DNA from: a virus
Virus record (IMG/VR): IMGVR_UViG_3300025892_000009
Strand: one strand, 5' to 3'
DNA length: 64,000 nucleotides
Shown here: positions 12,914-42,324 of the stretch, piece by piece
Layout: the number at the start of each line of letters is the position of its first letter
How positions within the stretch are numbered: position 1 is the first letter of the stretch
The notes under the pieces: model-generated
The model's input: only the letters and a program-made list of their open reading frames with translations
Databases searched by the model: none
Told to the model about the DNA's origin: nothing
Translations under genes and position numbers: made by a program

Positions 12914-12960
12914 TTGACTATTCTAGTAATTATTATTATAATCAACCATGTAAGGGTTGA
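12914..12960 (+). promoter_or_regulatory. Antisense sigma70 promoter with TCAACC-N7-GGTTGA element (copy 1)
   Basis: TTGACT (12914-12919), 17 nt, TATAAT (12937-12942), then CAACCATGTAAGGGTTGA. No plus-strand gene follows. Confidence 0.7.
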
Positions 12961-12970
12961 AAAGGAACTC

Positions 12971-13393
12971 TTAAAGGTTCTTCCATTGGTCTTCTAGTTT
13001 CTTTCTCATCTCTGAAACTTTACCGACTAGACCCATATTTTCATTGATGGGTGTTTCAAACTCAGCAGTATCTTCACCTGATTCTTTTCTCAACCAAAAT
13101 TTATACATAATAATTGCTTCCATTGACATGGGTGCAATAGTCACAATATCAGATTCTCTTACAATATAAAAGTCTTCATCCGACCACATCATCCATTTAG
13201 ATAATCCCATTGCCATAACAATTTGACCATCCTTTTCAATAGGATTCATTGATGGTGTTGCTGGATCTGAAATGAAAAGTATACTCTCATCATTTTCTTC
13301 TGTAGCAATTAGATTGCCCAAGATCTCTTCTCCAGATACTAACTTAATAGTCCCGTAGAATTCGTTGTCGTGGCGGATATAATTAATTGTCAT
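12971..13393 (-). CDS. Conserved hypothetical protein downstream of uvsW (possible Sm-like beta fold)
   Basis: FYGTIKLVSGEEILG...KWM N-terminus; ATGA coupling to uvsW. Confidence 0.7.
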   Translation of the reverse strand: MTINYIRHDNEFYGTIKLVSGEEILGNLIATEENDESILFISDPATPSMNPIEKDGQIVMAMGLSKWMMWSDEDFYIVRESDIVTIAPMSMEAIIMYKFWLRKESGEDTAEFETPINENMGLVGKVSEMRKKLEDQWKNL

Positions 13394-14853
13394 TTCCTAA
13401 AATTTATTTTAGTAACTTCATAGTTAAATTTTTCTTCATCATATATTTTCATTCTTTCGACAAGATGTCTTAAAGTATAATTATGATGATTACCTTTGGA
13501 GCAATCATCTGCAATGTCATACAGCACTGCTTGTGCTTTGTTATCCCCTTTACGCAAGACACGTCCAATAGACTGGAGGTTTCTTACTCGTGATTTGGAT
13601 GGACTTGCAAAGATTACATTATGTAGATTACGAATGTTAATGCCTGTAGAGAATGTGCCATAGGATGCAAGAATGATTGCATCTTTTTCCTGCTCACATA
13701 TCCTGCGAGCCTCTTCTCTTTCAACAGCATCTACACCACCATGAATAAAGAAGATCTTTCGATTTTCATTCACCTTAGTATTTAGTAACTCCCAAAGAGG
13801 GTCTCCGTGCTTTTCAATGTAGTTGAATAGAATCAAAGTGTTACCATCCAAATCATTCGCTAAGTTACAAATTAACTTATTTCTCTTTGGATGTGATATT
13901 ATATAATCCATCTCCTGTTGATAGTGATCAAATGGCACATGACCATGTTTTAGTAGAAGGATCTTTACCTGAAGGGGAGTCAGTTGACCTTTTGCCATCA
14001 ACTCTGCCGTTGAGGTCACCTTGTCGCAGCGCCCAAATAAACCCTCAAGAACCAGTTGATGAGTGTGCATCCCATCCAACGTGCCTGTCAGCCCAACTCT
14101 ATACTTTGCGTCATAACATTTCGTCAAAATGCCAGTAAGACTTTTTGCTTTGTATAGGTGTGCTTCGTCTCCAATAACTACATCAAATTTTGCAAAAAAT
14201 TTACGAGATTCTTTATAGATGCTTTGCCATGTAGAAATTACAACAGGGGCATCAGTATACTTCTCACGTCCTCCCATAATTTGATGCACATAAGAGTCTG
14301 CTGACCACCCATAATCTTTAAAGTCATTTGTTAGTTGAGACACCAAAGATGTAGTAGGCACAATGATAAGTATTTGTCTATCCTGTTTCAGATGCCAACG
14401 AACTAATGCGTAAATAATTAATGATTTGCCTGATCCCGTGGGGGATAGTAAAAGTTTGCGACGATATTTAAGTGCTGAGAAAACTGCCTTGAGTTGGTAA
14501 TCTCGGATCTTGAAAGGTAATCCCAGAGTCCTAATAAAAAACGCTGTGCTTTCAGGTGTGACATAATCTTCCTCTACATCAGGTAATCCATAGTAGTTGT
14601 TATCTTTTATGATATATTCATACCCTTTATCTTCTAGGTATTCACACAGATAATCGTAAAGACCCACATATATTTCCCCAGTGCCAGGAGAATATAAGCG
14701 GATCTTTCCATCCCATACTCGATTTTTATATTGGGGCATAAACTTTGCACCAGGAACATCAAATGAAAAGTGCTCACTTAATTCCTTATGCAGATGCTGC
14801 TCCCCTTCAACTTTTAGGTAAACTTCATTCTTCTTACTGATAGTAACAGTCAT
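13390..14853 (-). CDS. uvsW: UvsW SF2 helicase
   Basis: SPTGSGKS, DEAH, GLTGT, QSIGRVLR. Confidence 0.97.
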   Translation of the reverse strand: MTVTISKKNEVYLKVEGEQHLHKELSEHFSFDVPGAKFMPQYKNRVWDGKIRLYSPGTGEIYVGLYDYLCEYLEDKGYEYIIKDNNYYGLPDVEEDYVTPESTAFFIRTLGLPFKIRDYQLKAVFSALKYRRKLLLSPTGSGKSLIIYALVRWHLKQDRQILIIVPTTSLVSQLTNDFKDYGWSADSYVHQIMGGREKYTDAPVVISTWQSIYKESRKFFAKFDVVIGDEAHLYKAKSLTGILTKCYDAKYRVGLTGTLDGMHTHQLVLEGLFGRCDKVTSTAELMAKGQLTPLQVKILLLKHGHVPFDHYQQEMDYIISHPKRNKLICNLANDLDGNTLILFNYIEKHGDPLWELLNTKVNENRKIFFIHGGVDAVEREEARRICEQEKDAIILASYGTFSTGINIRNLHNVIFASPSKSRVRNLQSIGRVLRKGDNKAQAVLYDIADDCSKGNHHNYTLRHLVERMKIYDEEKFNYEVTKINFRK

Positions 14854-15293
14854 CTAATACCATAATACTTCACAATATCAATAGTATTCTTAATAGCAAA
14901 TCCACGACTGTCGATCTGTTTAAGTATCCTATCAATACAATTTATACAAGTTTCAAGGTAGTCAATTTTCTGTTGTGCTTTAGTTAAGTCTGGATCGCTA
15001 TCAATGTAAATACTCAGATCACCTTTCAATACTTTCAATAGGAAGGGTTTCTCTTTATATACCGAGGCAGGTGCTTTACCTGAATAGTATTCAAACTTCT
15101 CACGCAGTAATACCTTGCGCTTTACGTCTGCTTCTGATAGCATCAGTTTGAATTGATTATAAAATTGGATATATTTTGCATGTAGTCTAGGTGTTTCCAT
15201 GCTATCATTTGCCAATAGTTCAGGCAACTCTCTATGATCAAAGAATGATTCTGAATCCTTTGCCCACATCTCCTCAATTTTTTCTAGATTCAT
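14850..15293 (-). CDS. uvsY: Recombination mediator UvsY
   Basis: LHAKY...EYYSGKA...YIDSD...RGFAIKN; upstream of uvsW. Confidence 0.9.
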   Translation of the reverse strand: MNLEKIEEMWAKDSESFFDHRELPELLANDSMETPRLHAKYIQFYNQFKLMLSEADVKRKVLLREKFEYYSGKAPASVYKEKPFLLKVLKGDLSIYIDSDPDLTKAQQKIDYLETCINCIDRILKQIDSRGFAIKNTIDIVKYYGIR

Positions 15294-15847
15294 TAACTAA
15301 GTCTCTTATCGCGAGTATTCAATTCACCTTGTCGGATTTCATATCCAAGATATCTAAATTGGACTGATGCCATGGCATACTCTGTGCCATCAATTGTAGC
15401 ATTAAATTCGAGTGCTGACAAACTTATAGGGAATAAGTCTTTAAACACCACGTTAAAATTCATGTTGAAGTTACTGTTGAGCACAGTCAACGTGCCATCA
15501 GCATATAGATCATTGTTTCCAAATAGTGCTTGCATCTTTGTGCGATACTCGGATCTTTCAAAGACCGTATCTGGAGTACCTAGACCACGCAACCAGTTGT
15601 GGAGAATCATAAAATTTTCAAGATCCTCATCAATAATAAATTGAAGTTGGAAAGGATCATATTCTGCAAACCCTTCTATTGGCAATCCACGCAGCGGTGT
15701 AGATTGATTTGCTACGTTGACGTTAATAGAAGGGATGTTTGCTGACTGAGCAAAGTAGGCAATCTTTGGGAAACGAGCTAAACTAAACTTAAATCCAATT
15801 GGAGATAAGAAGTTTTGATTCTCAATCTGTTTATTCCAGGTTGCCAT
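15293..15847 (-). CDS. gp3: Tail tube terminator / tail completion protein
   Basis: NFLSPIGFKF, FAQSANIP, FIIDEDLENF, FKDLFPISLS tube-like motifs; position before uvsY. Confidence 0.85.
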   Translation of the reverse strand: MATWNKQIENQNFLSPIGFKFSLARFPKIAYFAQSANIPSINVNVANQSTPLRGLPIEGFAEYDPFQLQFIIDEDLENFMILHNWLRGLGTPDTVFERSEYRTKMQALFGNNDLYADGTLTVLNSNFNMNFNVVFKDLFPISLSALEFNATIDGTEYAMASVQFRYLGYEIRQGELNTRDKRLS

Positions 15848-15867
15848 AAGACATACTATGCTACATC

Positions 15868-16026
15868 TTATTTATCTTCATTATGCCAGAAGTCTTCCCA
15901 GTCTTCTTTAGTTACTTCTACTTCCTTCCAACTTCCACCAACACCACCATCCATGTTGACGACAATATCTTTATCTGGTTTGATACCTTCTGGAAGTAGA
16001 TCATCAATAAAATCTAAGTCTCTCAT
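15868..16026 (-). CDS. 52-aa acidic hypothetical protein (not in track)
   Basis: Hand translation MRDLDFIDDLLPEGIKPDKDIVVNMDGGVGGSWKEVEVTKEDWEDFWHNEDK; ATGA overlap with the upstream ORF. Confidence 0.7.
   Translation of the reverse strand: MRDLDFIDDLLPEGIKPDKDIVVNMDGGVGGSWKEVEVTKEDWEDFWHNEDK
15869..15876 (-). promoter_or_regulatory. T4-type late promoter for gp3
   Basis: GATAAATA about 20 nt upstream of the gp3 ATG. Confidence 0.55.
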
Positions 16027-16187
16027 GTGCGCCATTCTTGTAGGATGTTTAAGACTTCATTATAGGCATTATGAGCACCTTTGTGGAATTCTTCATTTTT
16101 ATTTTCAGATTCCCGATCATACAATGATGTCTTCAACTTATGTATCCTACATTCTAATTCATTTTTATTCATAGGATTTCTAGGCAT
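16023..16187 (-). CDS. 54-aa hypothetical protein (not in track)
   Basis: MPRNPMNKNELECRIHKLKTSLYDRESENKNEEFHKGAHNAYNEVLNILQEWRT; GAGGA Shine-Dalgarno upstream. Confidence 0.75.
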   Translation of the reverse strand: MPRNPMNKNELECRIHKLKTSLYDRESENKNEEFHKGAHNAYNEVLNILQEWRT

Positions 16188-16198
16188 ACTGTCCTCAC

Positions 16199-16214
16199 AT
16201 TATACAGTATTTAA
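16199..16214 (-). promoter_or_regulatory. Candidate promoter (TTAAATA late-like box next to TATAAT)
   Basis: TTAAATACTGTATAAT immediately after a terminator and before the 54-aa ORF. Confidence 0.45.
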
Positions 16215-16215
16215 C

Positions 16216-16239
16216 AAAAAAGCACCCACTAGGGGTGCT
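16216..16239 (-). terminator. Rho-independent terminator
   Basis: AGCACCCC-TAGT-GGGTGCT followed by TTTTT. Confidence 0.8.
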
Positions 16240-16266
16240 GTCACAGGGTTTACTGTTAGGACATTC

Positions 16267-16425
16267 TCATATAAGTAACTCCTTACAGATTTTTTTACAT
16301 GATGTATGATTTTGAATATCGCACTCAATTAGGCATTCATAATAATCATTTAAGTTTGCCTCTTCAACAGTTTCCTCAAAATGTCTCCACTCGTTGAGTT
16401 GATTTCTTGATGTTAAATTGTGCAT
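16267..16425 (-). CDS. 52-aa twin CX3C protein (not in track)
   Basis: MHNLTSRNQLNEWRHFEETVEEANLNDYYECLIECDIQNHTSCKKICKELLI; AAGGTGG Shine-Dalgarno. Confidence 0.8.
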   Translation of the reverse strand: MHNLTSRNQLNEWRHFEETVEEANLNDYYECLIECDIQNHTSCKKICKELLI

Positions 16426-16494
16426 TTCTTCCACCTTAAGTTTAAAATATAATGTAAAGGATTTTCAGATCATGGTAGTCTCTAATTCTGTTAC

Positions 16495-16501
16495 TATTTA
16501 G
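16495..16501 (-). promoter_or_regulatory. Late promoter for the twin-CX3C gene
   Basis: CTAAATA downstream of the gp23 terminator. Confidence 0.55.
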
Positions 16502-16534
16502 TCAGCGTATGCTAACTTAATGAAGAAAAGGCAC

Positions 16535-16560
16535 AAAAAAAGAGACCCCGTAGGGTCTCT
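16535..16560 (-). terminator. gp23 terminator
   Basis: AGAGACCC-TACG-GGGTCTCT followed by a T run. Confidence 0.9.
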
Positions 16561-16580
16561 GTGAAGATTGTGATCTCTGA

Positions 16581-17948
16581 TCACATGAGGTTGGTAACCT
16601 TAACGCGACGGTAGTAGCGGTTGAGGTTAGCATTGAGAGCGCCTTGACCCTGTGTGAGACCTTCAGCGAAGGGATTTGCGACCATGCCGTAGCGGGTCTT
16701 AAATCCGATCTTGGGTTGGAAGGTGTCCTGACCCACTGCACGGACCATCTGGAGAGGCACGTAAGGGCAGTAGAAGAGACCTGCGTCATAAGCACTGCTG
16801 CCTTTGTAACCAGACACGTAGAAGTGGTTATCGGAAACGTTAGCAGAGTAAGGATCGACATACACCTTGATGCGACCGTTGAGGGTGCCCACCAGAGTGG
16901 AGGAGTTGTCGTCAACTTGACCCAATCCACCAACAGCACCAGAGATGCCACTGGAGTAGTCGAGCACGCCAGCCATGGAGAGAGCAGATGCCACATCAGC
17001 AGAGCAGATGAGGATGTTGCCTTTCCCGCGACGAGTCTCATGACCGATTGCATTCATGTCTCTCTCAATTTGGAAGAGAAGACCTTTGAATTTCTCAACA
17101 GACCAGCGACCGTTGGAGTCAACGTCGAGGTCAAACGTGCCTGCAGTTGCAGTGTTGTTCTGAGCACCAGGACGAGCAATCTTGTAAACAGTACGGACAA
17201 CCTCACGGTTGATCTCTGCCAGCACTTCAGTGCTGAGGATGTTTGCAAGCTCGCTTTCGGCATCCAGACCATGGACTGCCTTAAGGTCCTGAGCAAGCTC
17301 AAGACTGTATTCTGCTTTCAGAGCGCGTGACTTCGCAGTAACGGTGACCTTCTCGATCGAGAAGCCCATTTCGTTGAAGTGGTTGGAAGCGCCATCACCC
17401 AGTGCTTCAGACTGAGCGGTTGTCATGCCCTGACCACCAATGGTGTAGTTACCAGCAGCGTCAGCAAGCAGACCAGGATTAGATCCAGTCTGAGTGTTGG
17501 ATGCAAGACCGTTTGCACTATTCTCGGAAGAATGCTCAGAGTTAGCTTCGTTGAAGAATGCCTCAACAGCACTGTTGTTGATGTCTCTGTTGGTGCCCTG
17601 TGTGGAGCGCATCGCGAAGATGAGTCCAGTAGGACCTGTCATAGGCTGGACGCCACAGATGTCATAAGCAATAAGCTTAGGCATCGAGCGACGGATGAGA
17701 CTGATCAGCACAGGGTCGAAACCTGCAACAGGACCAGTTGCGGTGCTACCGCCACTGAAACCAGTACCGCCCAAGCTGTTGGTAGGTGCTGCTTCGTTGA
17801 TCATCCCACGCTCTTCGCGGAGGAAATTTTCTTGGTTTTCCAGGAGGACCGAGGTAACCGCCTTTCTGTATGAATCCTTAATAGGATCGAGCTCCGAATG
17901 CTCAAGAATGGGGTTCCACTTTTCCTGGAGATGTTCTGCGTTAAACAT
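16581..17948 (-). CDS. gp23: Major capsid protein
   Basis: AGFDPVLISLIRRSMP, VQPMTGPTGLIFAMR, AKSRALKAEYSLELAQDLKAVHG, YCPYVPLQM. Confidence 0.99.
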   Translation of the reverse strand: MFNAEHLQEKWNPILEHSELDPIKDSYRKAVTSVLLENQENFLREERGMINEAAPTNSLGGTGFSGGSTATGPVAGFDPVLISLIRRSMPKLIAYDICGVQPMTGPTGLIFAMRSTQGTNRDINNSAVEAFFNEANSEHSSENSANGLASNTQTGSNPGLLADAAGNYTIGGQGMTTAQSEALGDGASNHFNEMGFSIEKVTVTAKSRALKAEYSLELAQDLKAVHGLDAESELANILSTEVLAEINREVVRTVYKIARPGAQNNTATAGTFDLDVDSNGRWSVEKFKGLLFQIERDMNAIGHETRRGKGNILICSADVASALSMAGVLDYSSGISGAVGGLGQVDDNSSTLVGTLNGRIKVYVDPYSANVSDNHFYVSGYKGSSAYDAGLFYCPYVPLQMVRAVGQDTFQPKIGFKTRYGMVANPFAEGLTQGQGALNANLNRYYRRVKVTNLM

Positions 17949-17986
17949 TGGATCTCCTAGTTATTCTTTGGAATTTGGATTAGTAA

Positions 17987-19027
17987 TTACTTGCCCCAAC
18001 GGGACAGTGCCTGGACATAGACAGACATTGACTCATTGATAGGACCATTCTCAACTTGCACATCCTCAGTTACGGTAGTAACTTCTGGTTTTGTTGAGAA
18101 ATATGATTCACGGAGGGTAGAAACTTTCTCACGGAATGCTTCTTCATTTTCAAACTCAACAGCTTCTGCCAAGGATCCGAGTTTCTCACGCTGAGTGAGA
18201 CTCAAACCTTCGGAGATTTCTGTCACAATCCCATTCTTGATATAGTTGCCGACGCTCTTATTGAGACCGACGTTTTCTTCAATAGACTCGTTGAGTTTTG
18301 TTTCCATGGTCTGAAGTTGCTCTTGCATTTCGTCTACAAGATCAACTTTCTCGTCGGGAAGATCGATGAAATTCTCGACGAAAACTTGCTTGATTCCGCT
18401 CAATACAGACTCAGCCATCTCAGACTTAATGCCGTGCTCGACCGCGAGCTCGTTATTCTTCATCCAATTGGATACGGCATAAGTGAGATACTCATCAACT
18501 GATTCAGCCAGTTGAGTCTTGACGGTATCAATTTCTTCTTCAAGGACCTTTGCATAGTCCTCGTGCATACGCTCCAGTTCTTCATTGATTCTGGAAACGA
18601 CCGCTGCTTCAAAGATAGTCTTTGCTTTCTCTTTGAATTCTTCGGTAAGGTCTTCACCTTCTGTGAGTGCAGCAACATCAGCAGACAGATCCACCTCAAT
18701 GACGGTCTCTGTTGATGCTTCTGTTTCTGCGATCACTTCGCCCTCAGGCTCATGACCTGCCTTTACATCACCCTTAGCAGCAAATTCTGCTTTAGCGCCA
18801 GATGCATCAGAAGGCTTAGTTGTAGGAGCCGAAGCAAACCCACCAACTACAGTCTTCATCTTATTGCTGTCGTCATCAGGCTTACTGTTAAAGGGTGTTG
18901 GACCTCCGAGGTCTTGTACTCCAGCGAGACTACTACCGTCAGAACCCAGTTTTTGCTGAGGGTCGGCAGGTTTAGCGCCAGCAGTTACACTCGATTCATC
19001 CAGAGTTGTTTCAATCTCTTGTGACAT
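17987..19027 (-). CDS. gp22: Prohead scaffold protein
   Basis: EEFKEKAKTIFEAAV, VDEYLTY, acidic helical composition; precedes gp23. Confidence 0.93.
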   Translation of the reverse strand: MSQEIETTLDESSVTAGAKPADPQQKLGSDGSSLAGVQDLGGPTPFNSKPDDDSNKMKTVVGGFASAPTTKPSDASGAKAEFAAKGDVKAGHEPEGEVIAETEASTETVIEVDLSADVAALTEGEDLTEEFKEKAKTIFEAAVVSRINEELERMHEDYAKVLEEEIDTVKTQLAESVDEYLTYAVSNWMKNNELAVEHGIKSEMAESVLSGIKQVFVENFIDLPDEKVDLVDEMQEQLQTMETKLNESIEENVGLNKSVGNYIKNGIVTEISEGLSLTQREKLGSLAEAVEFENEEAFREKVSTLRESYFSTKPEVTTVTEDVQVENGPINESMSVYVQALSRWGK

Positions 19028-19066
19028 TATAGTCTCCGTGGTACAAACGTGCGATTTGCTATGAAT

Positions 19067-19074
19067 TATTTATA
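19067..19074 (-). promoter_or_regulatory. Late promoter for gp22-gp23
   Basis: Perfect TATAAATA. Confidence 0.8.
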
Positions 19075-19075
19075 C

Positions 19076-19723
19076 TTATAAATTTTTCAGGAATTGATGA
19101 AACGCGGAAAGTTTCATTTCTTCTAACTGATTTTGGTGGGCATTGTCAATTCTATGTTTGATTTGCTCAATGCTTTGCTCTCGGACTGCGCCTCCAGCAA
19201 GTACCCACTCCCTACCTTCCATAATGCCATTCACAAAAGCATCTGGTGCAGATGGATCTGCTACAATATCTGCAGCAGTTGCCAGCATGAAGTCGTCTGC
19301 GACAACTTTCATTCCATTTTCTTCTCTAATAGATCCTAAACCTCTAGAAGAGACGCCAAGTTTCACACCCTCATCGAGCAGAGACTTAGCAATGTTACCC
19401 ATAGGGGTATCAAGAATACGTGCTTTACCCATAAAATTATTACCCTCTCTTGTTAGAGATGTAATAAGATGAGAGACGCGATCAAGATTAAGAGTAGGAC
19501 CATCGGGATGACCCAACTCACCAAGTGCGCGACCTTTGGTAATGTAGTTCTCATTATATTTATAGACTTCTCTTTCGAGAGTTTCTACAGGATACATTCT
19601 ACCGTTACGGTTTTTGATTGCACCTTGAAGAAAAACCCCTTCGATGAAGTGATTCTTCTTACCATTTTTGCCCTCAGTAATAACTACTTTGGCAGTTTCA
19701 ATTTCTTCCCTAATCAGTTTCAT
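19076..19723 (-). CDS. gp21: Prohead protease
   Basis: NRNGRMYP, LGELGHP, GVSSRGLGS, DIVADPSAPDAFV. Confidence 0.97.
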   Translation of the reverse strand: MKLIREEIETAKVVITEGKNGKKNHFIEGVFLQGAIKNRNGRMYPVETLEREVYKYNENYITKGRALGELGHPDGPTLNLDRVSHLITSLTREGNNFMGKARILDTPMGNIAKSLLDEGVKLGVSSRGLGSIREENGMKVVADDFMLATAADIVADPSAPDAFVNGIMEGREWVLAGGAVREQSIEQIKHRIDNAHQNQLEEMKLSAFHQFLKNL

Positions 19724-19934
19724 TGTTTTCCTCTGGTGGTGCAGCGTCTACAGGTTGCTCAGTATTCTCAGGACCGTCTTCCTGTGGGGCAAATAGTTTT
19801 GCTCCCATTTCTTTTTTCTTCGCATCAATCTGGTCAACAGCAACATTTTTCATTGCAGTATCAACAAAATCTGAAAGATCTTTTTGACCTGCAAACAAAG
19901 CATTTACAATATCAAGCGCGGAATCGGTAGGCAT
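19710..19934 (-). CDS. Small acidic prohead core protein (gp67-like position)
   Basis: 74 aa, acidic tail, between gp20 and gp21. Confidence 0.6.
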   Translation of the reverse strand: MPTDSALDIVNALFAGQKDLSDFVDTAMKNVAVDQIDAKKKEMGAKLFAPQEDGPENTEQPVDAAPPEENNETD

Positions 19935-19956
19935 AATTAAAATTAATTTGTAATAC

Positions 19957-19963
19957 TATTTAG
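19957..19963 (-). promoter_or_regulatory. Late promoter
   Basis: CTAAATA overlapping the gp20 stop. Confidence 0.6.
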
Positions 19964-21564
19964 ATATTTCCTTTTTCATAGTCAGCGGGATCCAATCCTT
20001 CTTCCTCTTCAGGTTCAGGAGGTTGCAGACTTAGTGCCATTTGCTCATGCTCCATTTGCTGCATTGCCATTGGATCAATGAGTTTCCCATCATCAATTTC
20101 TTTCGACATCTGCTTGTCGATCTCATTCAACTCAGCATCAGTTTGGCGCAATATTTGACGCCGAAGATATTCCAATGAGAAATACTTACCAGCAAAGGGA
20201 TCCATCTGCTGCAGAAGAGCAAGACGAGCATTCATAATCTCTTGCTCTTTCAACTCACTGAAGTAGTTGTCGGCAACAAAATCAAATTGGATGTGCTCTT
20301 TCATGTCATCCCACTCTTCAAGAGTGGCGACACCTTTCAACACAAGTTGTGTTTTTAAAATGTCAAGGAAGAGGTCACTAAACCTCTTGCGAAGTCTAAT
20401 AACAAATTTTTGGAATTTTACTTCATCGCGGGTGATCTCTGCAGACCTACCAACGTTAAATGATGTATCTGATTCTAAACGTGACTCAGGTACGTTGAGT
20501 GATCTGTAAAGTTTCTTCTGGAAATACTTGACATCCTCCAACTCGCCTAGGTTTTGTCCACCAGGAAGAGTAGTAATTTCTGTGCCGCGTCCACCCTCTC
20601 TACGAGGTAGCCAGAAGTCTTCTAGCATAGACATGAATTTTTTATCATCACGAATCTCACCAGTGTCAGCGTTATACACCAACTTGTTTCTATAGCGAGA
20701 CATTACCTCACGAAGGTATTGCTCAGCTTTTTGTTTGGGGAGATTACCAACATCAATATAGAAAATACGACGCTCAGGTGCTCTACTTAAACGATAGATC
20801 ACCAAAGAGTCTTCAATCATTCGCAGTTGATTGACTGCTTTAATTGCTTTGTGGAGGTGTGACAGCACATAGTTGCGCTGCATATCAACTTGCCCTGAAT
20901 GGGTAAAGCAAATTGCATCAGGTGCAATTTTGATCCCATGATTCTCATACCCACGAAGACCTTTGGGTGAGTAGATAAAATACTCAATTGCTTTAGGGAC
21001 AAGAGTATTCATTGCAGGATCTGAAGGTGACAACCTATCCTTAGGCTTGTCATACTCAATAACCTTTTTGATCTTGCGAGGATCGATATATCTTAACTCT
21101 GTAATTCCTTCGGCAGGATTATCAGGGTTGATCATCTTATGATAAAAGAGGCGACCGTCGATATACCAACGACGGAAAATATCATACGCCTTCCTATCAA
21201 AGTCAAGGAGTGAAAGTACATTCCCAAACTCTTCTCTAATTCTTGTCTTGACGGTATTTGAAACTTTGAGATTAGATAACTCAATGTCTACAGGATGATC
21301 GTCAAGGTCACCTGCAATTGCTTCATTTACAATATCTGCAATTGCGGCATCTGCTTCTGGATGAAGTGACATCTCGCGGTATCTACCGACAAGATCAACT
21401 TCACTAGATTTATTAGCAGAATCTCCAAGGTCAACGTATTGACCAAAATAACCGCCAGCGGCTATGGGTTGGGCAGCATCGTCAGAATCTTTATGCACGA
21501 AAGAAGGACCCTTGTTGGAGTCCTTCTTCTTGCGATCAAGTGAATAACCAAATAGTTGTGACAT
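19960..21564 (-). CDS. gp20: Portal protein
   Basis: LRMIEDSLVIYRLSRAPERRIFYIDVGNLPK, EDFWLPRREGGRGTEI. Confidence 0.99.
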   Translation of the reverse strand: MSQLFGYSLDRKKKDSNKGPSFVHKDSDDAAQPIAAGGYFGQYVDLGDSANKSSEVDLVGRYREMSLHPEADAAIADIVNEAIAGDLDDHPVDIELSNLKVSNTVKTRIREEFGNVLSLLDFDRKAYDIFRRWYIDGRLFYHKMINPDNPAEGITELRYIDPRKIKKVIEYDKPKDRLSPSDPAMNTLVPKAIEYFIYSPKGLRGYENHGIKIAPDAICFTHSGQVDMQRNYVLSHLHKAIKAVNQLRMIEDSLVIYRLSRAPERRIFYIDVGNLPKQKAEQYLREVMSRYRNKLVYNADTGEIRDDKKFMSMLEDFWLPRREGGRGTEITTLPGGQNLGELEDVKYFQKKLYRSLNVPESRLESDTSFNVGRSAEITRDEVKFQKFVIRLRKRFSDLFLDILKTQLVLKGVATLEEWDDMKEHIQFDFVADNYFSELKEQEIMNARLALLQQMDPFAGKYFSLEYLRRQILRQTDAELNEIDKQMSKEIDDGKLIDPMAMQQMEHEQMALSLQPPEPEEEEGLDPADYEKGNI

Positions 21565-21589
21565 TGCTGTCTCGTGTTACATTATCAAT

Positions 21590-21597
21590 TATTTATA
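21590..21597 (-). promoter_or_regulatory. Late promoter for gp20
   Basis: Perfect TATAAATA. Confidence 0.8.
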
Positions 21598-21604
21598 ATA
21601 AATA

Positions 21605-22288: not shown

Positions 22289-22327
22289 TGAATGTTACTC
22301 CTGTTTGATGATAATAGGAAAGGGTAG

Positions 22328-25099: not shown

Positions 25100-25139
25100 C
25101 TGTTAATCTCCTGAATTAATCAAGTTCGGATGCTGAAAC

Positions 25140-30248: not shown

Positions 30249-30249
30249 A

Positions 30250-31206: not shown

Positions 31207-31210
31207 TGGA

Positions 31211-31753: not shown

Positions 31754-31776
31754 GGTGATTGATTACTCCTACGATT

Positions 31777-34110: not shown

Positions 34111-34903
34111 TCATGTCCAGTGGTGGTAATTCCCATTGCGTACGCAATTGCTCATCAAGGATCTTTAATTCCTCAACAGCATCGTTATAAATCATCTCAC
34201 CATTCAATGTGATTCCCCCTGGCATTTGCACACCAGAAAACTTAGTGAGATTCTGTCCCCACTGCTTCTTAACTTTCGCAGTAGTATAATCTTTAATCCA
34301 CAATTGATTATAAATTTCAGTCCATGTATTTGGATCTAAAGCACGCCATGCTTTAATTACAATATACTGATCTACAATCGCATCTTCTGGCCAACTCCAG
34401 TCAATATAAAGACGATCCTGCACAGCATGATACCGAATAGGACTCATGCCCTCAAGCAAGAAATCAATTGTAGATAGATGCGACTGGATCATATAATAAT
34501 GATAAAATTGTGTAGATGTAAAATCATACAAGTCATTCAATCTCATCTGATATCTAATATCAAAGATGTTAGAAGATCCCTTATCACTGTATGAAAACAG
34601 ACCTTCTACCGAAAGAATATGATCTGGGATTTCAATGTATGTATTGTTTTCTATCCAGGCATCATTTCCCGCTGATGAGGTTGATCCTGCAGTAGTTTTC
34701 GATCTATCAATCACATCCTGTGTGATCTGATGTTTCAAATAGACACGCTCGCATCCATCATAATGAAACTGTTGGAATTTTTGCAATGAATAATCCACTG
34801 CATCATCCAATTGATCATCAGAAACATTGATTTCAATCACAGGGTCGCCTAGGCGACGTTTCACATATGATTTTAATTCTGCTTTAGAAGTTAGAGTTGC
34901 CAT
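34103..34903 (-). CDS. gp13: Neck protein
   Basis: RRLGDPVIEINV, KQWGQNLTKF, LPGG-like MPGGITLNG. Confidence 0.95.
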   Translation of the reverse strand: MATLTSKAELKSYVKRRLGDPVIEINVSDDQLDDAVDYSLQKFQQFHYDGCERVYLKHQITQDVIDRSKTTAGSTSSAGNDAWIENNTYIEIPDHILSVEGLFSYSDKGSSNIFDIRYQMRLNDLYDFTSTQFYHYYMIQSHLSTIDFLLEGMSPIRYHAVQDRLYIDWSWPEDAIVDQYIVIKAWRALDPNTWTEIYNQLWIKDYTTAKVKKQWGQNLTKFSGVQMPGGITLNGEMIYNDAVEELKILDEQLRTQWELPPLDMIG

Positions 34904-34909
34904 TGGTTA

Positions 34910-37900
34910 TCAGAGAGCAGCGATACGGGTCTGGAAGTCAGCAAAGTCTGCCGAAGCAGCAACTGTTGCTTTGAGAGTTGCTAATGTAATTGTCTCTGCT
35001 TGAAGTGCAGAGTCAGCAGTTGCACCTTGTGCAGCAGTAGCATAATCAGTAGAAGCAGTTGCAGCGGCAGTACCCAGAGTAGGTAGGTTAGTAAGATCAT
35101 TGTAAGATCCAGTGGTTGCTACGGTTGCCAGATCACCTGGTTGTGTAGCAGTGTCTGCCAAACCACCCTGTGCAGCAGTTGCATATGCAGTTGCATCAGT
35201 GGTGGCAGCAGTGCCGAGACCCAGAGCATTGATACCCGCTGTTACGCGAGCATCGGCACGACCATCGGTGAAGTAGAGGTTAGTGCTTCCCTCAGTAATA
35301 CCATCCGAGTCAGGTGTGGTATAAGAGAAGACGCCAGTGCCAGGAGTGTAAGACAGATCACCAGTGGCACTTACAGCACCACGAGCATCAGCAGTCTTAA
35401 AGGTGGTTACACTAAATGCACCAGTGCTAGCATTATAAGCGAGATCGCCACCAGCACTAAATGCACCCCTAGCGCGAGCGTTGGTAAAGAAGATGTTTGT
35501 GGATCCTTCTGTGACATTATCAGTATTGATATCAGATTGAGTAACAGAAAGAGTGCCTGTATTTAACTCAATACCATTGCCATACGTGAAGTGTGTTCTC
35601 GTGCGAGCAGCAGTGGTGAATAGAGCAGTAGATCCTTCTGTGATGTTGTCAGTGTTGATGTCACCCTGAGTTGCACTCAGTGTCAGGATATTACCTGCAT
35701 CATCATATGTAGCAGTGATACCAGTGCCACCTGTGATCAGAGCAGCAACACGATCATCAACTCTCTCATTAGTGAAGTAGAGGTTGCTGGTGCCTTCTGC
35801 CAGAGCATCAGTATCATGGTTAGCGATACTACCAACTTGTGACTCGAAGAATGTCAACGCACCAGTAACATTCAAGTTACCTTGGACTTCAAAGTTAGTG
35901 GTTGATCGGAAGTTAGCAACCGTCAGTCTATTAGTAGATGGATTATATGTAAGGTTTGTGGAGTCAGTGCGGATCTCAGTGTGTCCATTATTCGTGGAAA
36001 CGAATGTAGGATAGTAAGTAAGGTTAGATGTTGTAGTGTCAGTAATATCAGCAAGGTCTGACTTGTCAGCAGTACCTGTTAGGTCACCAGTTACATTACC
36101 AGTGATCTGTCCAGTAACACCCAGTGTGCCACCCATGGTGGTGTTGTTAGTAACATCAAGACTTGCAAGAGTGCTAAGACCAGTGATCTCAGCGTTACCC
36201 GTTGTGGAGTTAAGTGTAATCTTGTCAGTGCCGCTACCATTCTGCAACTTGAGAGTCTTACTAGCACCACGGAGGACAAGGTTGTCCTTAAACAGTGAGG
36301 TGCTATCGACAGTCAGGGTGCCATCTAGTTGCTGATTGCCATCAACATTAAGATCAGAATCAAAGTCTACATTCTGAGTAACATTCAGAGTGTCATCAAT
36401 GATGACTCTACCTGCAACATCCAGGGTGCCTTCAATATCAGTATTACCAGTAGATCCAGAAACAATAAACTTATTAGTGTTAACGATAATAGATCCACCA
36501 ACGTTGACGTTAGAAGTCGTGTTGATAGTTGAAATATTAGCAGTTGTGCCTGAGAATATTGATGCTGTGATTGTGCCGTCTGCAGTGATGTTACCTGTAG
36601 CACCGAAGAAGGTAATGGTTTCATTCTGGTCAGGACCAACAAAGATGTCTTCACCGAAGAAGGAGTCTTCATAGACTGCCACACCACCGTTAGGCACCAT
36701 GATTGCACAGTTGCCAGTAAGACGAGATGCAGTCTCATTCTTAGTGAATTCAACACGACCACGGAATTCCTGGTTACCTTTCTGGACGACGTTACCATCT
36801 ACCTCAAAGTTACCATAGATCTGCATGTCTCCACCAATTGCCAGATCCTGAGCAACTGATATACCACCTGCAACTTGCAGAGCACCAGAGGCAGAGAAGT
36901 TAGATCCAGTAGATGTATTAGTGGTGTCAGTGATACTAACAATATCACCCAGTGTAGATGTGCCAGAGACATCAGCGTTACCGTTGATGTCAACATTATC
37001 ATTGATAGTTGTCAGACCTTCAATCTGAGTTGTGCCAGCAATAAAGGTATTACCGTTGTCGGTGTCAACAGTAAATCTGTCAACCAGAGAAGATCTAATG
37101 ACAAAGTTTTCGTTAGTGGCATCAACCAGAAGGGTGTCATTGATAGTTGTCTGATCACTAACAACCAATGTGCCACTGACTGTAGCATTATCTGTGATGT
37201 TAACAGTGCCACCAGAAGAGTCAAGGACAAGGTTACCAGCAGTGGTGTCAATCTCGTTGGATGCAGCAACACCAATCCTCACAGAGTCGGCAGTGATGTC
37301 TGTAGAGGTGATTGCAGCGGTAAATGTAGATGTAGCGTTGACCGTTAATGTATCAGCGTTTGAATTACCAAGAGTAGAGTTGCCATCAACTGTCAGGTTA
37401 TTACTAACAGCAAGACTAGCAGTGACAGCGACGTTGTTGGCAGATGAGTCAAGGACTAGCGATCCACCATTTGCAAAAATTGCTCTGCTACCTTGGGTAG
37501 TGCCAAGACGGAGATCGTTAACGTGGATTCCATCGTTGGCAGTAATGCGTTGATTTGCAGTGACAGTGCCTGTAATAGTATGAGCATCGTCAGCAGCATC
37601 ACCGATAGTTGCACTACCGTCAACTGTCAGATTGCCATCGATCTGAGTATTTCCATCAACATTAAGGTTGCCGTCAATGTCAGCATTGTCTGTGATGTTA
37701 ACAGTGCCGCCAGCAGAATCAATAATCAGATTGCCAGAAGTGGTGCCAATTTCATTTGCAGCGTCTGTGCCAATCTTCAAGTTACGGATGTTTGCTCTCT
37801 CAGCAACAGTGAGTGCTTGGTTAAACTGGACTACACCAGTTACTACATGTGAGTCACTAGCAGCATTACCAACCGTCGTATTACCATTTACACCAAAGGT

Positions 37901-40900
37901 GCCAGCAACAAATGTATTACCTGTTTGTGCATCAACAGTGAATGTGGTAGAGACAGCGAAGTCATCGGTTACATCCAGTGTGCCTGTGATGTCAACGTTG
38001 CCACTAATTTCAGCATTTCTAGTCAGATAGAAATCTTGACCGACTCTCAGATCAATACCGATACCAGCACCACCACCAACAATCAGAGTACCTGATGAGG
38101 CATTCGTGGAATTCGTTGTATCGAAGAGTTTTACCGATCCAGCATCAATACCCGATCTAGTCCCTGAGAATGCCTCAGAAGCGTTTGTAGCACCGTTGTA
38201 GAAGGCATAACGACCTGCTGAGTTATCCCAACCATAAAAACCTAGTTTTGCAGATCCATCATAGTATCTAAATTCAACACCACGATCTTTTGCGTCGTCT
38301 GATGTAGGTGCAGTGTCTCCACCCAAAGTGATTACAGGATCATCTAGTGTGACAACAGTAGAGTTGACTGTGGTAGTAACACCATTAACAGTCAAGTTAC
38401 CTTCGATAATAGCATTACCATCAATATCAAAGTTACCGTTGATAGTAACGTTATCAGTAAATGTAGAGACGGAATTAACTGTCAACACATCAGTGTTTGC
38501 ATCACCGATAGTGGTCAGAGGACCATTGATTGTGAATTGCTCGTTAAAAGTTGCATGACCGTGGACAACAATTGCACCATCAGTAGCATTACCCTGACCA
38601 ACACGACCGATAGTTGTAAAACCAGATTCACCTAGAATTGAAAATTCAACCGTATCTAAAGTGTTAACTTTACCAACATAGAAATCATCACCAACGTGAA
38701 GATCTTGGACAATACCGACACCACCAGAAACTCTCAGGTTAGCACCAGGATCATCAGCAAAGGTTGCATTGTGTGCTGTAGTAGCACCAATATATTGACG
38801 ATAAAGAATGTCAACATTATTGAGCAATGATGGACGAGTGCGCTCAATACCAGCATCCTTAACTACTAAACGATCATCAAGATAGATATCTCCACCAATG
38901 CGAAGATCTTTTTCAATGTTAACACCACCTGCATAGGTAGCATTACCATTAGTGGTAAGAGTGATATCCGATTCAGATGTAGTTGCATCAACTGCAATGT
39001 TAGCAGTCCTCTCAAAGGTGTTAAATCCACCAATGTTTAGAGATCCTTCAATATCAGTATTACCATTTGTGGTCAATACATGGAATGTTTGATTGCTACC
39101 ATTAGTAATTGTAAAATTCTTACCAGTGACATCCATCAGGAAGTCATTATGGAAGACCACATCATCATCGACATCCAACTCAGCATTGAATGTTACGTTG
39201 CTATCAACATTAAGAGTTGAATCAAAGTCAACACCTTGGACTACATGTAGTGTCCCTTGGACATCAGTATTACCGTTATCAGAATCAACAGTAAACTTAT
39301 TGACTGATCCAGCAGTGCGGATAATAAATTCTTTGTTATCAGCAGTGATGATGAGATTATCTGTAATCTCAGTCTCAAGTTGAATATCCAGGGTGCCTTC
39401 GATAACAGTGTTACCAGTTGCACTCTCGATAGTAAACTTATCAGTAGTATTGTTTCTAACAGCGAAGTTGGCATCAATGTCAACTGTGCCGTCAATCTCA
39501 ACGTTACCAAGAAGGTGAGTCGTGCCACCGACGTTAAGATTTTCGGAGATACCTGTGCCACCAGTCACCACCAGGGTGCCAGTTGTAGGTGTCTTCCAAG
39601 TAGAAGAAGTATTTGTGGTTAGTCTGAGGTTACCAGCAATGACAGGAGCGTCTGTGCCAGAGTAAACTTCAGTAGCGTTAGTCGCGTTGTAGAGGAACCT
39701 ATACCCGCCAGTGCCAGACCAAATGTTAGAGTCTGCGTAATCTTCGTCCCAACCATAGAATCCGAATCGCTCTTCACTATCATAATACCTAAATTCGATA
39801 CCACGGTCTTTGTTATCATCTGCAACAAGAGTATCCTCACCACCCAAAGTGATGATCGGATCCTGCACTGTCATTGTCACCGAGTTTACGGTGGTTGTAG
39901 TGCCGTCAACTTGGAGATCACCGCGAATGATCATTAGACCAGTTGCAGCATCATCATCGCCTGGATCCAGAATCATCGTAGAGTTTACACTACTCAGAGT
40001 ATTCTGCTGGAAGCGATATCCTTCAACGTTAACAAAGTAAGCAGCATCAGTGCTAGAGATTGTGATCTCATTGTCAGCAGTGATGTTAATATTTGCAGTG
40101 CCACCAGCATTAGCGTTGTTGGCAGTGATATTCATGTTGCGGTTATCCGCCTCATCAACTTCCAAGTGGAAGTCTACATTGCCCGAGGTCCGCTTAATGA
40201 ACTGGTTGGTTTTTGTAACGTCAAGAGTAATATTACCAGAGATGGTAGTATCGAGGTTAATGTCAATAAGACCAGTAAGACTCGATCCCCAGTTTGCGTC
40301 ACCGTTACCGTTAGGGTCATCAGCAGCAACAGCAGGATAGGAATTGCCCTGATCCAGAATCCCAGGCTGGAAAGGATACTCAGTAGTATCGTAACCAGTG
40401 ACACGGAATACGCTACCTCCTGTCCTGTTATTAACATTAACGTGGTTAATGGCGGTAATGCCATGATAAGCATTATCAGTCGTCCTTTCGGGGTCAAGCT
40501 CAAAGGTCTCCGTTGCGTTTTGGTCGGTAAACATGAGACGACCCAACGATTGCAGTTGGGAATTCTCTACCGCATTTTCGGCGATTGTAACGTGACCATT
40601 TGCGTCTACGTCAAAATCTTCCTGGTCGAAACTCGCAATACCCTTTTGCTCGACGCCATCAGTACCCAGGTCTCTCCATCCACCCTGATCGTCGTTATCT
40701 CCGTTTTGGGTGTTATGTGATGGCTCACCAAGTCCTGCTGGGATGTCCCGAATAGCTGCCTGATATGTCCTACCATTGCTAGCAATAATCTTGCTGAATC
40801 TAGGATATACAACAGCATTACCGTAAACGGTGAAAGTCGTGCCATCCTTCGCTCCCTGTGTTGCCGTAGCAATTGGTGAAGTATTAGCATAAATGAGACG

Positions 40901-41707
40901 ACCATATCTGTCAACTTCCAAGTTGACCGTGTTGACCGTTTCGGCACCAGTTGTTGCTGAGATTTTTGGATCTACTAAAGGATCCATTGCTGTGATTGGG
41001 TTGTACTTACCCACCACAACTGTAGTATCTGCTAGGTCAACAAATGGGTTAGATGCCTGAGCATTACCATTCTGGACAATAACACGACCACTACCACCAG
41101 TAATAGTCCTAGAAACAATATTACCTTCCGCTTGGCGAGACAACATACCAAACGTAGTCATCGATGCCAGTGATGTTAAATCACTATCCAATGGTTGTGC
41201 GTCAGCAATACCAAAATCGGTGAGAGTAGATGGACTATCTGCATCAATAATACGACCACGGGAATCCACCGTGATACGAGTATATGTGCCAGTTGCATCT
41301 AGGTCGAGTGGATCGTAGTGGGGAAGTGCCACCACATAATTCAATTCTGCAGTAATAGTGAGGTTTGAGGATCCATCAAACGTGCCACTACCAGACATGT
41401 CGCCACCCAATTGGATCTGGCGAGCATTAGCAAGACGGGTTGCAGTTGCTGAATTACCAACCAATGATCCAGTAATGGCACCTGCTTCAAAGTTACCATC
41501 AGCATCTCTCTTAACAAGAGTATTTGCAGTATTTGATTCAGTTTCAAGTGGTCTCTCATATCGAAGAGAGTTCCATGCAGTGACACCATCACCGATCTTG
41601 ATACGCGAAGTATCAATCTCAATTCCCAATTCTCCTTGAGCAAGAATAGGATTGACGTTTGCCCACTGCTGGGCACCGTCACGTCTTAATTGGATTCTAT
41701 TTGCCAT
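34910..41707 (-). CDS. Large tail/neck fibre protein (2265 aa)
   Basis: N-terminal RIQLRR...W...NPILAQGELG...KIGDG fibre-head motif; long T/G/N-rich beta repeats; position just upstream of gp13. Confidence 0.85.
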   Translation of the reverse strand: MANRIQLRRDGAQQWANVNPILAQGELGIEIDTSRIKIGDGVTAWNSLRYERPLETESNTANTLVKRDADGNFEAGAITGSLVGNSATATRLANARQIQLGGDMSGSGTFDGSSNLTITAELNYVVALPHYDPLDLDATGTYTRITVDSRGRIIDADSPSTLTDFGIADAQPLDSDLTSLASMTTFGMLSRQAEGNIVSRTITGGSGRVIVQNGNAQASNPFVDLADTTVVVGKYNPITAMDPLVDPKISATTGAETVNTVNLEVDRYGRLIYANTSPIATATQGAKDGTTFTVYGNAVVYPRFSKIIASNGRTYQAAIRDIPAGLGEPSHNTQNGDNDDQGGWRDLGTDGVEQKGIASFDQEDFDVDANGHVTIAENAVENSQLQSLGRLMFTDQNATETFELDPERTTDNAYHGITAINHVNVNNRTGGSVFRVTGYDTTEYPFQPGILDQGNSYPAVAADDPNGNGDANWGSSLTGLIDINLDTTISGNITLDVTKTNQFIKRTSGNVDFHLEVDEADNRNMNITANNANAGGTANINITADNEITISSTDAAYFVNVEGYRFQQNTLSSVNSTMILDPGDDDAATGLMIIRGDLQVDGTTTTVNSVTMTVQDPIITLGGEDTLVADDNKDRGIEFRYYDSEERFGFYGWDEDYADSNIWSGTGGYRFLYNATNATEVYSGTDAPVIAGNLRLTTNTSSTWKTPTTGTLVVTGGTGISENLNVGGTTHLLGNVEIDGTVDIDANFAVRNNTTDKFTIESATGNTVIEGTLDIQLETEITDNLIITADNKEFIIRTAGSVNKFTVDSDNGNTDVQGTLHVVQGVDFDSTLNVDSNVTFNAELDVDDDVVFHNDFLMDVTGKNFTITNGSNQTFHVLTTNGNTDIEGSLNIGGFNTFERTANIAVDATTSESDITLTTNGNATYAGGVNIEKDLRIGGDIYLDDRLVVKDAGIERTRPSLLNNVDILYRQYIGATTAHNATFADDPGANLRVSGGVGIVQDLHVGDDFYVGKVNTLDTVEFSILGESGFTTIGRVGQGNATDGAIVVHGHATFNEQFTINGPLTTIGDANTDVLTVNSVSTFTDNVTINGNFDIDGNAIIEGNLTVNGVTTTVNSTVVTLDDPVITLGGDTAPTSDDAKDRGVEFRYYDGSAKLGFYGWDNSAGRYAFYNGATNASEAFSGTRSGIDAGSVKLFDTTNSTNASSGTLIVGGGAGIGIDLRVGQDFYLTRNAEISGNVDITGTLDVTDDFAVSTTFTVDAQTGNTFVAGTFGVNGNTTVGNAASDSHVVTGVVQFNQALTVAERANIRNLKIGTDAANEIGTTSGNLIIDSAGGTVNITDNADIDGNLNVDGNTQIDGNLTVDGSATIGDAADDAHTITGTVTANQRITANDGIHVNDLRLGTTQGSRAIFANGGSLVLDSSANNVAVTASLAVSNNLTVDGNSTLGNSNADTLTVNATSTFTAAITSTDITADSVRIGVAASNEIDTTAGNLVLDSSGGTVNITDNATVSGTLVVSDQTTINDTLLVDATNENFVIRSSLVDRFTVDTDNGNTFIAGTTQIEGLTTINDNVDINGNADVSGTSTLGDIVSITDTTNTSTGSNFSASGALQVAGGISVAQDLAIGGDMQIYGNFEVDGNVVQKGNQEFRGRVEFTKNETASRLTGNCAIMVPNGGVAVYEDSFFGEDIFVGPDQNETITFFGATGNITADGTITASIFSGTTANISTINTTSNVNVGGSIIVNTNKFIVSGSTGNTDIEGTLDVAGRVIIDDTLNVTQNVDFDSDLNVDGNQQLDGTLTVDSTSLFKDNLVLRGASKTLKLQNGSGTDKITLNSTTGNAEITGLSTLASLDVTNNTTMGGTLGVTGQITGNVTGDLTGTADKSDLADITDTTTSNLTYYPTFVSTNNGHTEIRTDSTNLTYNPSTNRLTVANFRSTTNFEVQGNLNVTGALTFFESQVGSIANHDTDALAEGTSNLYFTNERVDDRVAALITGGTGITATYDDAGNILTLSATQGDINTDNITEGSTALFTTAARTRTHFTYGNGIELNTGTLSVTQSDINTDNVTEGSTNIFFTNARARGAFSAGGDLAYNASTGAFSVTTFKTADARGAVSATGDLSYTPGTGVFSYTTPDSDGITEGSTNLYFTDGRADARVTAGINALGLGTAATTDATAYATAAQGGLADTATQPGDLATVATTGSYNDLTNLPTLGTAAATASTDYATAAQGATADSALQAETITLATLKATVAASADFADFQTRIAAL
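35255..35815 (-). repeat. Four TDxxxEGxxNLYFT-type repeats near the fibre C-terminus
   Basis: TDALAEGTSNLYFT, TDNITEGSTALFTT, TDNVTEGSTNIFFT, SDGITEGSTNLYFT. Confidence 0.8.
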
Positions 41708-41750
41708 TTGATTATAAGGATCCTAGCAACCGACAACAGTCTTTCTTGTT

Positions 41751-41758
41751 TATTTATG
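41751..41758 (-). promoter_or_regulatory. Late promoter for the fibre-gp13-16 operon
   Basis: CATAAATA directly after a terminator. Confidence 0.65.
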
Positions 41759-41763
41759 CCATT

Positions 41764-41783
41764 AAAAAACCCCCTTACGGGGG
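41764..41783 (-). terminator. Rho-independent terminator
   Basis: CCCCC-GTAA-GGGGG (GNRA loop) followed by TTTTTT. Confidence 0.8.
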
Positions 41784-41791
41784 ATGCAGAT

Positions 41792-42013
41792 TTATTCTGC
41801 AGCAGGAGTCTCTTCCTCTTCAGTCTCGTCAGATGAAGGGGGGGAAAGATACTCAAGAGTTTCAATCGCTCCAAGCAATTTGAGAGCGGTGGCTTCATTA
41901 TCTTTGATCTTTTTCGAGAGCTCTTGATTCTCACGAATAATATTTTGATACCGTGTTTGGAATTGCTCTAGCAATTCTTCCTGAGAAGCAGTTTCAGTCA
42001 CATCAGCAGTCAT
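41792..42013 (-). CDS. Small acidic coiled-coil protein
   Basis: 73 aa, heptad-like ELLEQFQTRYQNIIRENQELSKKI; GGAG Shine-Dalgarno. Confidence 0.7.
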   Translation of the reverse strand: MTADVTETASQEELLEQFQTRYQNIIRENQELSKKIKDNEATALKLLGAIETLEYLSPPSSDETEEEETPAAE

Positions 42014-42014
42014 G

Positions 42015-42284
42015 TTATTCTCCTTTAATTAATGATTTCAATAACGTTTTAATTTCCGACAAGTCAGATTTTAGTCCATCTACGTCTCCTTGTAAAGCCT
42101 CAAACTTCTCATCTTTCTTTTGCCGCTTACGATAAGCAGACATATATTCCTCATACTGAGTTTTATTACAATTTACAATAGCATTTGAAGATGGATCCCT
42201 ATACCACCCGTCTCTTCCCTTAACTGGGATTAGATCGGGTGAGTAAGGTTTAATATGATCTGTAGAGTCTTGGGGGCTTGACAT
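42015..42284 (-). CDS. Small conserved protein with C-terminal coiled coil
   Basis: IPVKGRDGWYRDPSSNAIVN...LKSDLSEIKTLLKSL. Confidence 0.75.
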   Translation of the reverse strand: MSSPQDSTDHIKPYSPDLIPVKGRDGWYRDPSSNAIVNCNKTQYEEYMSAYRKRQKKDEKFEALQGDVDGLKSDLSEIKTLLKSLIKGE

Positions 42285-42324
42285 AGTAACTAATAATAAT
42301 TATAATCAACCTTGTGAGCGTTGA
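42278..42324 (+). promoter_or_regulatory. Antisense sigma70 promoter with TCAAC-N9-GTTGA element (copy 2)
   Basis: TTGACA (42278-42283), 17 nt, TATAAT (42301-42306), perfect consensus; then CAACCTTGTGAGCGTTGA. Confidence 0.75.

Follow-up and report, generated by a model that had tools for sequence, protein, structure and literature searches.

The 64,000-nucleotide virus record IMGVR_UViG_3300025892_000009 from IMG/VR, hereafter the window, derives from a T4-like cyanomyovirus and contains a pair of promoters that point against its genes. The credible genes of this 64-kb window all lie on the minus strand, and the plus strand carries two consensus sigma70-type promoters, site 1 and site 2, each placed opposite the 3′ end of a gene in a cis-antisense geometry. 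We propose, at a probability of about 0.6, that both sites are copies of a module conserved in cyanomyoviruses, in which a consensus promoter for the host polymerase is fused to a 15-bp start-site box, and that the backward copies would act on their neighbourhood as set out in the last section. The parts of this proposal differ in strength. Judged from their conservation in relatives, both sites are very probably genuine sigma70-type promoters, and the chances for and against a regulatory role of the backward transcription appear evenly balanced. The elements of the two sites are as follows.

12914..12942, plus strand: core promoter of site 1, with −35 TTGACT (12914-12919), a 17-nt AT-rich spacer and −10 TATAAT (12937-12942)
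12944..12958, plus strand: start-site box of site 1, 15 bp, within a 19-bp inverted repeat (12942-12960)
42278..42306, plus strand: core promoter of site 2, with −35 TTGACA (42278-42283), a 17-nt spacer and −10 TATAAT (42301-42306)
42308..42322, plus strand: start-site box of site 2, a variant with three changes, within an inverted repeat (42306-42324)

Both elements had been picked out in an earlier note made from the letters of the window, and we recovered them at the same positions, with the same −35, spacer and −10, and on the strand that the note had called gene-free. The core promoters match the sigma70 consensus at 11 of 12 positions at site 1 and at all 12 at site 2, both with a spacing of 17. 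Based on the distance to the −10, transcription is predicted to start at approximately 12948-12950 and 42312-42314. The facing stop codons lie 29-31 nt from the end of the −10, in agreement with the roughly 30 nt given earlier, and 21-27 nt from the predicted start. The two copies are direct repeats 29 kb apart with essential genes between them.

A scan of the whole window returned five sites with at least 11 of 12 matches to the sigma70 consensus, a number to be read against the 2.4 obtained from shuffled sequences. On the plus strand sites 1 and 2 were the only ones at this level, so the earlier ranking of the pair among the best promoter matches in the window holds. The other three, on the minus strand, all have the form TTGACA-17-TATTAT, and one of them is the promoter of gp55. 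The shared pattern, consisting of the −10 and both arms of the repeat, occurred twice in the window compared to 0.01 times expected from shuffles.

Conservation of the promoter and its start-site box

To assess conservation independently of the promoter, IMG/VR was scanned with the 15-mer box alone, which gave 91 distinct contexts. In 43 of these the box was preceded, at a distance of 0-1 nt, by a TAnnnT −10 together with a −35 at most one mismatch away from TTGACA (41 of them exact); shuffled upstream sequence yields a full promoter at a rate of 0.2%. Lack of conservation of the −35/−10 spacing had been set beforehand as a point against the promoter reading; the outcome was the opposite, the spacing being 17 nt in all but one of the 43 promoter-bearing contexts. 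The −10 occurred as TATAAT, TATACT, TAGAAT or TACAAT, with T1, A2 and T6 invariant, the positions of the −10 that weigh most in recognition by sigma70. The spacers, on the other hand, fell into 31 distinct sequences with a mutual identity of only 44%. Preservation of the −35, the −10 and the 17-nt spacing while the spacers drift is the pattern expected from selection on promoter function. A possible promoter in the opposite direction, reading through the palindromic −10 on the minus strand (TTnTCA-17-TATAAT, 10/12), was considered as well; it is at best weak, because its −35 matches at only 3-4 of 6 positions in relatives.

The earlier note had described a 19-bp hairpin over the start site. 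The inverted repeat is indeed present; the conserved unit, however, is the 15-bp box AACC[A/T]TGTNAGGGTT, a quasi-palindrome that is roughly symmetric about its eighth base. Within it only the AACC/GGTT pairing (4 bp) is constant, and the greater arm length in the window is a trait of its lineage. The left arm of the repeat lies upstream of the predicted start, and with a start 6-8 nt after the −10 it is excluded from the plus-strand RNA. As RNA, the two window hairpins are weak (−6.6 and −4.1 kcal/mol) and fold equally well on both strands. A start-stop mini-ORF (ATG TAA) within the box was rejected as the conserved feature, being lost in box variants. Rfam gave nothing at the gathering score across the window, and noise only around both sites.

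The box is closely tied to the promoter. Across five complete genomes 10 of 12 box matches were promoter-linked copies; the conserved, roughly symmetric site over the predicted start is essentially restricted to the modules in these genomes, as for an operator-type element. When the genomes were scanned with looser patterns, other sigma70-like promoters were found without a start-site box and no further module copies appeared, indicating that the module does not represent the general promoter of early or middle genes. Among 185,579 cellular species genomes the combination of −10 and box had five matches, which is estimated to be near chance level, and one of these matches lies on a cyanophage contig inside a metagenome-assembled genome (MAG). 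A site for a host transcription factor was rejected on these grounds, the combination being otherwise absent from cellular genomes. The contig in question, JBJLEF010000003.1, is a 27-kb member of a 'Pirellulaceae' MAG that carries the cpeT-side cyanophage module together with the start of the gene; it is probably misbinned cyanophage DNA.

Among the loci fetched, 71 distinct cyanomyovirus instances were counted, which share the −35 TTGACA, the spacing of 17 and a −10 that keeps T1, A2 and T6, with a drifting spacer sequence. Apart from three they fall into four context classes, two antisense and two sense.

gp55 side, antisense: 28 certain and 5 probable loci, with the geometry conserved across the 33
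3′ end of the giant structural gene, antisense: 17 homologous IMG/VR loci
directly upstream of cp12/cpeT, sense: 14 loci, with as few as 3 nt between box and start codon
upstream of a 67-70-aa ORF (phrog_718; Syn9 gp88), sense: 4 loci
unclassed: 3 loci

The element had originally been viewed as an antisense device as such. This view has to be given up, since identical modules drive cp12/cpeT and the 67-aa ORF in sense in relatives, where the start codon follows the box after 3-10 nt. One to three modules were present in 15 of the 16 complete genomes scanned; the module-bearing genomes include Syn9, S-PM2, S-SM1, S-WAM1, S-MbCM6, S-H35, S-RIM4, S-SSM5, S-CAM22 and S-MbCM100. Nearly all lineages retain the gp55-side copy, which runs opposite in direction to the other copies wherever the gene context was checked. 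In S-CAM22, S-MbCM100 and P-SSM7 the giant structural gene abuts the small gene with neither a gap nor a module, indicating that the context of site 2 is derived; on this comparison, the site 2 copy is an insertion specific to the clade of the window phage. In S-WAM1 (NC_031944, record 14391-15013), a DNA endonuclease gene lies between the cpeT-side module and cpeT and resembles a homing-type insertion behind the box.

The copies within one genome have the same box variant. The mean edit distance between boxes was 1.19 within and 2.58 between genomes, and none of 20,000 label permutations did as well, in a test inflated by the relatedness of the genomes. The clearest comparison is that of the congeneric phages S-H35 and S-RIM4; at each of the three loci their boxes differ at positions 4, 5 and 9. 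At one of these loci the flanks are 98% and 100% identical over 300 nt on each side, and at a second the upstream flank is 99% identical. The spacers were not homogenised between loci. The region of gp55 and its Sm-like neighbour is a local divergence hotspot between the two phages, with 69-83% identity compared to 98% in uvsW. A box that is matched across all loci of a genome points to a cognate factor or to short-patch conversion over approximately 20 bp of homology as the cause. On this evidence the box probably marks a small co-regulated set of transcripts, while a dedicated box-binding factor is a tentative suggestion with the odds somewhat against it. The operator role suggested for the palindrome in the earlier note gains indirect support from the concerted evolution of the box.

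Genes around the two sites

The genes and the additional promoter that surround the sites are listed below.

12378..12860, minus strand: gp55 late sigma factor gene (phrog_234, E 1e-67; annotated as gp55 in relatives)
12883..12911, minus strand: gp55 promoter, TTGACA-17-TATTAT, with its −35 located 2 bp from the plus-strand −35 of site 1
12971..13393, minus strand: gene of a 140-aa Sm-like domain protein (PF16243, E 4.8e-26; phrog_471), faced by site 1
13390..14853, minus strand: uvsW helicase gene (UvsW_N, ResIII and Helicase_C domains), the gene that a plus-strand transcript of site 1 would reach next
42015..42284, minus strand: gene of an 89-aa small virion structural protein (phrog_473, E 7e-32), with its ATG overlapping the plus-strand −35 of site 2
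42337..49656, minus strand: gene of a 2439-aa structural protein (DUF4815, VrlC-like; domain matches), faced by site 2

Site 1 lies in a 110-nt gap between the Sm-like gene and the downstream gp55, with uvsW just upstream of the Sm-like gene. This corrects the first description: on the minus strand, site 1 is immediately followed by gp55. That description had also taken the operon faced by site 1 to be a late one; the uvsW operon is a recombination operon. Site 2 lies in a 52-nt gap between the 2439-aa gene and the gene of the 89-aa virion protein.

A divergent sigma70-type gp55 promoter was found on the opposite strand in every gp55-side locus that was read by eye. In the window the arrangement is back-to-back, with the two opposed −35 boxes 2 bp apart and held in a palindrome (12907-12918), and an automated count assigned this layout to 21 of the 33 gp55-side loci. 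In Syn9 and S-MbCM6 the promoters are interdigitated, each −35 being located inside the spacer of the other promoter, in which case two polymerases would be unable to bind at once. In the back-to-back layout two polymerases would at least crowd each other. With the −35 boxes 2 bp apart or the promoters interdigitated, the two polymerases probably compete.

Several further features were noticed near the sites or elsewhere in the window. In public cyanophage records the Sm-like gene (12971-13393, minus strand) carries the label 'methylamine utilization'. On the plus strand, a 40-aa ORF (13047-13169) begins approximately 98 nt after the predicted start of site 1 and probably results from the conserved gene that occupies the opposite strand. 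Two further TTGACA-17-TATTAT promoters are found on the gene strand, at 11099-11071 and 5367-5339 (minus strand), and have the same unusual TATTAT −10 as the gp55 promoter; these may represent a middle-gene promoter type of the window phage. The segment 15848-16580 (minus strand) comprises 733 nt without a long ORF and includes a CTAAATA that resembles a late promoter, strong terminators at 16560-16541 and 16239-16221, and several tiny ORFs. Finally, two short perfect palindromes are located at 42340-42365 (plus strand) in the final codons of the 2439-aa gene, one of them spanning the stop codon. They are kept in relatives and may simply reflect a conserved C-terminal peptide.

Comparison with known systems and alternative readings

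The closest described counterparts of the module are the promoter-early stem-loop (PeSL) cassettes of T4-like coliphages and vibriophages (Arbiol 2010, PMC2839356; Comeau 2014, PMC4122927), in papers neither of which mentions cyanophages. Like the module, they consist of a repeated near-consensus sigma70 promoter (TTGACA, 17 nt, TATAAT) combined with an inverted repeat, which in one PeSL subclass lies just downstream of the −10, and they are able to appear at new intergenic sites. The modules might therefore be regarded as PeSL-like mobile cassettes, serving as recombination substrates and portable promoters, with antisense copies that have no regulatory purpose. Such a reading, which we consider rather unlikely, has several observations in its favour: the composite of a strong sigma70-like promoter and an inverted repeat is that of the PeSLs as described (PMC2839356), the gap of site 2 is absent in cultured relatives, so that a new site was colonised, the concerted box changes could represent conversion between copies, and an endonuclease gene lies directly behind one S-WAM1 module. 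However, PeSLs occur in large numbers in a genome, in plastic regions where they flank ORFans, are sense-oriented and have stable terminating stems, whereas the module occurs in one to three copies at fixed loci, forms no dense arrays in plastic regions and in two of its contexts is antisense at the borders of core genes. Its stem is weak, with mostly 4 bp paired, and its conserved part is a 15-bp box that is identical across the copies of a genome. Thus, the module has the promoter of a PeSL and lacks the stable terminator, the high copy number and the sense orientation. Also at odds with a mobile cassette are the presence of the gp55-side copy in nearly every lineage, paired with the gp55 promoter, the mere 20 bp or so of homology between copies, and the position of the window copies as direct repeats 29 kb apart across essential genes. 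The concerted boxes and the clade-specific site fit recombination between copies, and they also fit selection by a trans-acting factor.

If the conserved feature were instead a hairpin in the minus-strand RNA, one by which transcripts of the upstream genes are terminated, processed or stabilised at their 3′ end, the promoter match would be incidental. The repeat lies 10-13 nt after stop codons, is followed by a partly U-rich tract and folds equally on both strands, all of which would suit such a hairpin. Relatives nevertheless keep the −35, the key positions of the −10 and the 17 nt between them, with spacers that differ, whereas only 4 bp of arm pairing are kept, and at the cp12/cpeT and small-ORF loci the module has the opposite orientation to the genes. 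At only −4 to −6 kcal/mol it also differs from the real terminators of the window (16560, 16239 and 41783), which are GC-rich stems with T runs. The module hairpin was not listed in terminator scans of the window, the GC-rich stem and U run of an intrinsic terminator on the minus strand are lacking at the modules, and no T run follows the stem on the promoter strand. Taken together, we consider this explanation highly improbable. The chances are similarly slight that site 1 drives, in sense, a small gene overlapping on the plus strand, namely the 40-aa ORF at 13047-13169. A homologous open frame of 40-46 codons is found 76-94 nt after the box in 14 of the closest gp55-side loci, but it is absent or closed in more distant ones, including Syn9, S-SM1 and S-SSM5. 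No ribosome-binding sequence precedes its ATG, it is a codon-aligned antisense frame of a conserved protein, which is often open by chance, and site 2 has no equivalent ORF.

A further possibility, to which we assign a marginally better but still very low chance, is that the modules are R-loop origins of the type of T4 oriF (uvsY) and oriG (34), at which the transcript stays hybridised and primes DNA synthesis. As in those origins, the transcript need not encode anything, and the elements are few per genome, one to three. The modules are strong host-type promoters without a gene to serve, they have a G run in the non-template strand just past the predicted start, and one of them lies beside uvsW; in T4, UvsW removes origin R-loops. 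On the other hand, identical modules with a start codon 3-10 nt after the box clearly serve translated mRNAs. The sequence downstream of the modules contains no AT-rich unwinding element; with 62-68% A+T compared to 59% for the window it is coding sequence of the converging gene.

Two further groups of known elements resemble the module in part. Unmodified host polymerase is thought to read the sigma70-like promoters of T4-like cyanophages (PMC2984593), and in Syn9 and S-PM2 gp55 and replication genes bear such host-like promoters; the module differs from these in its specific start-site box and in opposing genes in two of its contexts. Antisense transcription in cyanophages has a precedent in CfrI of S-PM2 (Millard 2010, as cited in PMC2984593 and PMC12197685) and in the antisense RNAs of P-SSP7 (PMC3113571). 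In these cases, as in that of lambda OOP, an opposite-strand promoter at the 3′ end of a gene gives rise to an RNA complementary to the end of the mRNA. In contrast to CfrI, OOP and the P-SSP7 RNAs, which were detected with defined ends, the module transcripts are predicted, a terminator is not evident, and ordinary genes are served by this promoter too. A defined small RNA was not favoured as the product, as neither a conserved structure nor a terminator was present downstream. The RNA-seq papers on P-HM2 and S-PM2 report no phage antisense data at these loci, and no description of a backward gp55 promoter was found in the accessible literature. The present analysis added the sense copies, the recognition of the box as the unit that is conserved, together with its concerted evolution, and the derived state of site 2.

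Proposed mechanism and its meaning

In the proposal that we favour, that of a conserved module with a promoter and a start-site box, host polymerase carrying the primary sigma factor would start inside the box at both window sites, during the early or middle phase of infection. Both copies would yield plus-strand RNA without a gene to serve. The RNA from site 1 would enter the Sm-like gene and uvsW in antisense from their 3′ side, and the RNA from site 2 would do so in the giant structural gene. At site 1 the backward promoter would compete with the gp55 promoter and tune the amount of the late sigma factor, and backward transcription could keep polymerases of the upstream operon from reading on into gp55. 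The site 2 promoter would insulate the end of the operon and supply an anti-late RNA before late transcription begins. A phage-specific factor would recognise the box, as DNA or at the 5′ end of the RNA, and regulate every module of a genome jointly, and the box would link the backward promoters with cp12/cpeT and the small early ORF as one co-regulated set. Extending this, one could speculate that the box is the address label of a small phage regulon, read by a phage-encoded specificity factor on DNA or on the RNA 5′ end, and that a factor turning the backward promoter off would free the overlapping gp55 promoter and so time the late shift. The fast-evolving Sm-like protein encoded next to site 1 would be one possible candidate for this factor. 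We consider this extension unlikely, and somewhat more so than a box-binding factor as such.

Several observations weigh against the proposal. Site 2 has no partner promoter, and promoter competition is thus not a general role of the module. P-TIM40, one of the complete genomes scanned, has no module at all. No plus-strand terminator was found close after either site, the first weak candidates being at 13523 and 44828, which leaves the RNA products undefined, and in their structure the predicted plus-strand RNAs are unremarkable (z +0.45 and +0.38). The joint changes of the boxes could arise by short-patch gene conversion, with no factor involved. Among the neighbouring small proteins no known fold or family was recognised, and no box-binding candidate was established.

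To our knowledge, T4-like cyanophages are without the T4 proteins that reprogram the host polymerase (MotA and AsiA are absent). The module offers a concrete and testable handle on how their middle and late transcription is timed, as a host-type consensus promoter, conserved over many genera, that overlaps the gp55 promoter and points in the opposite direction. Strong promoters without a gene to serve would thereby be a regular feature of abundant marine viruses, which matters for the reading of metatranscriptomes and for genome annotation.

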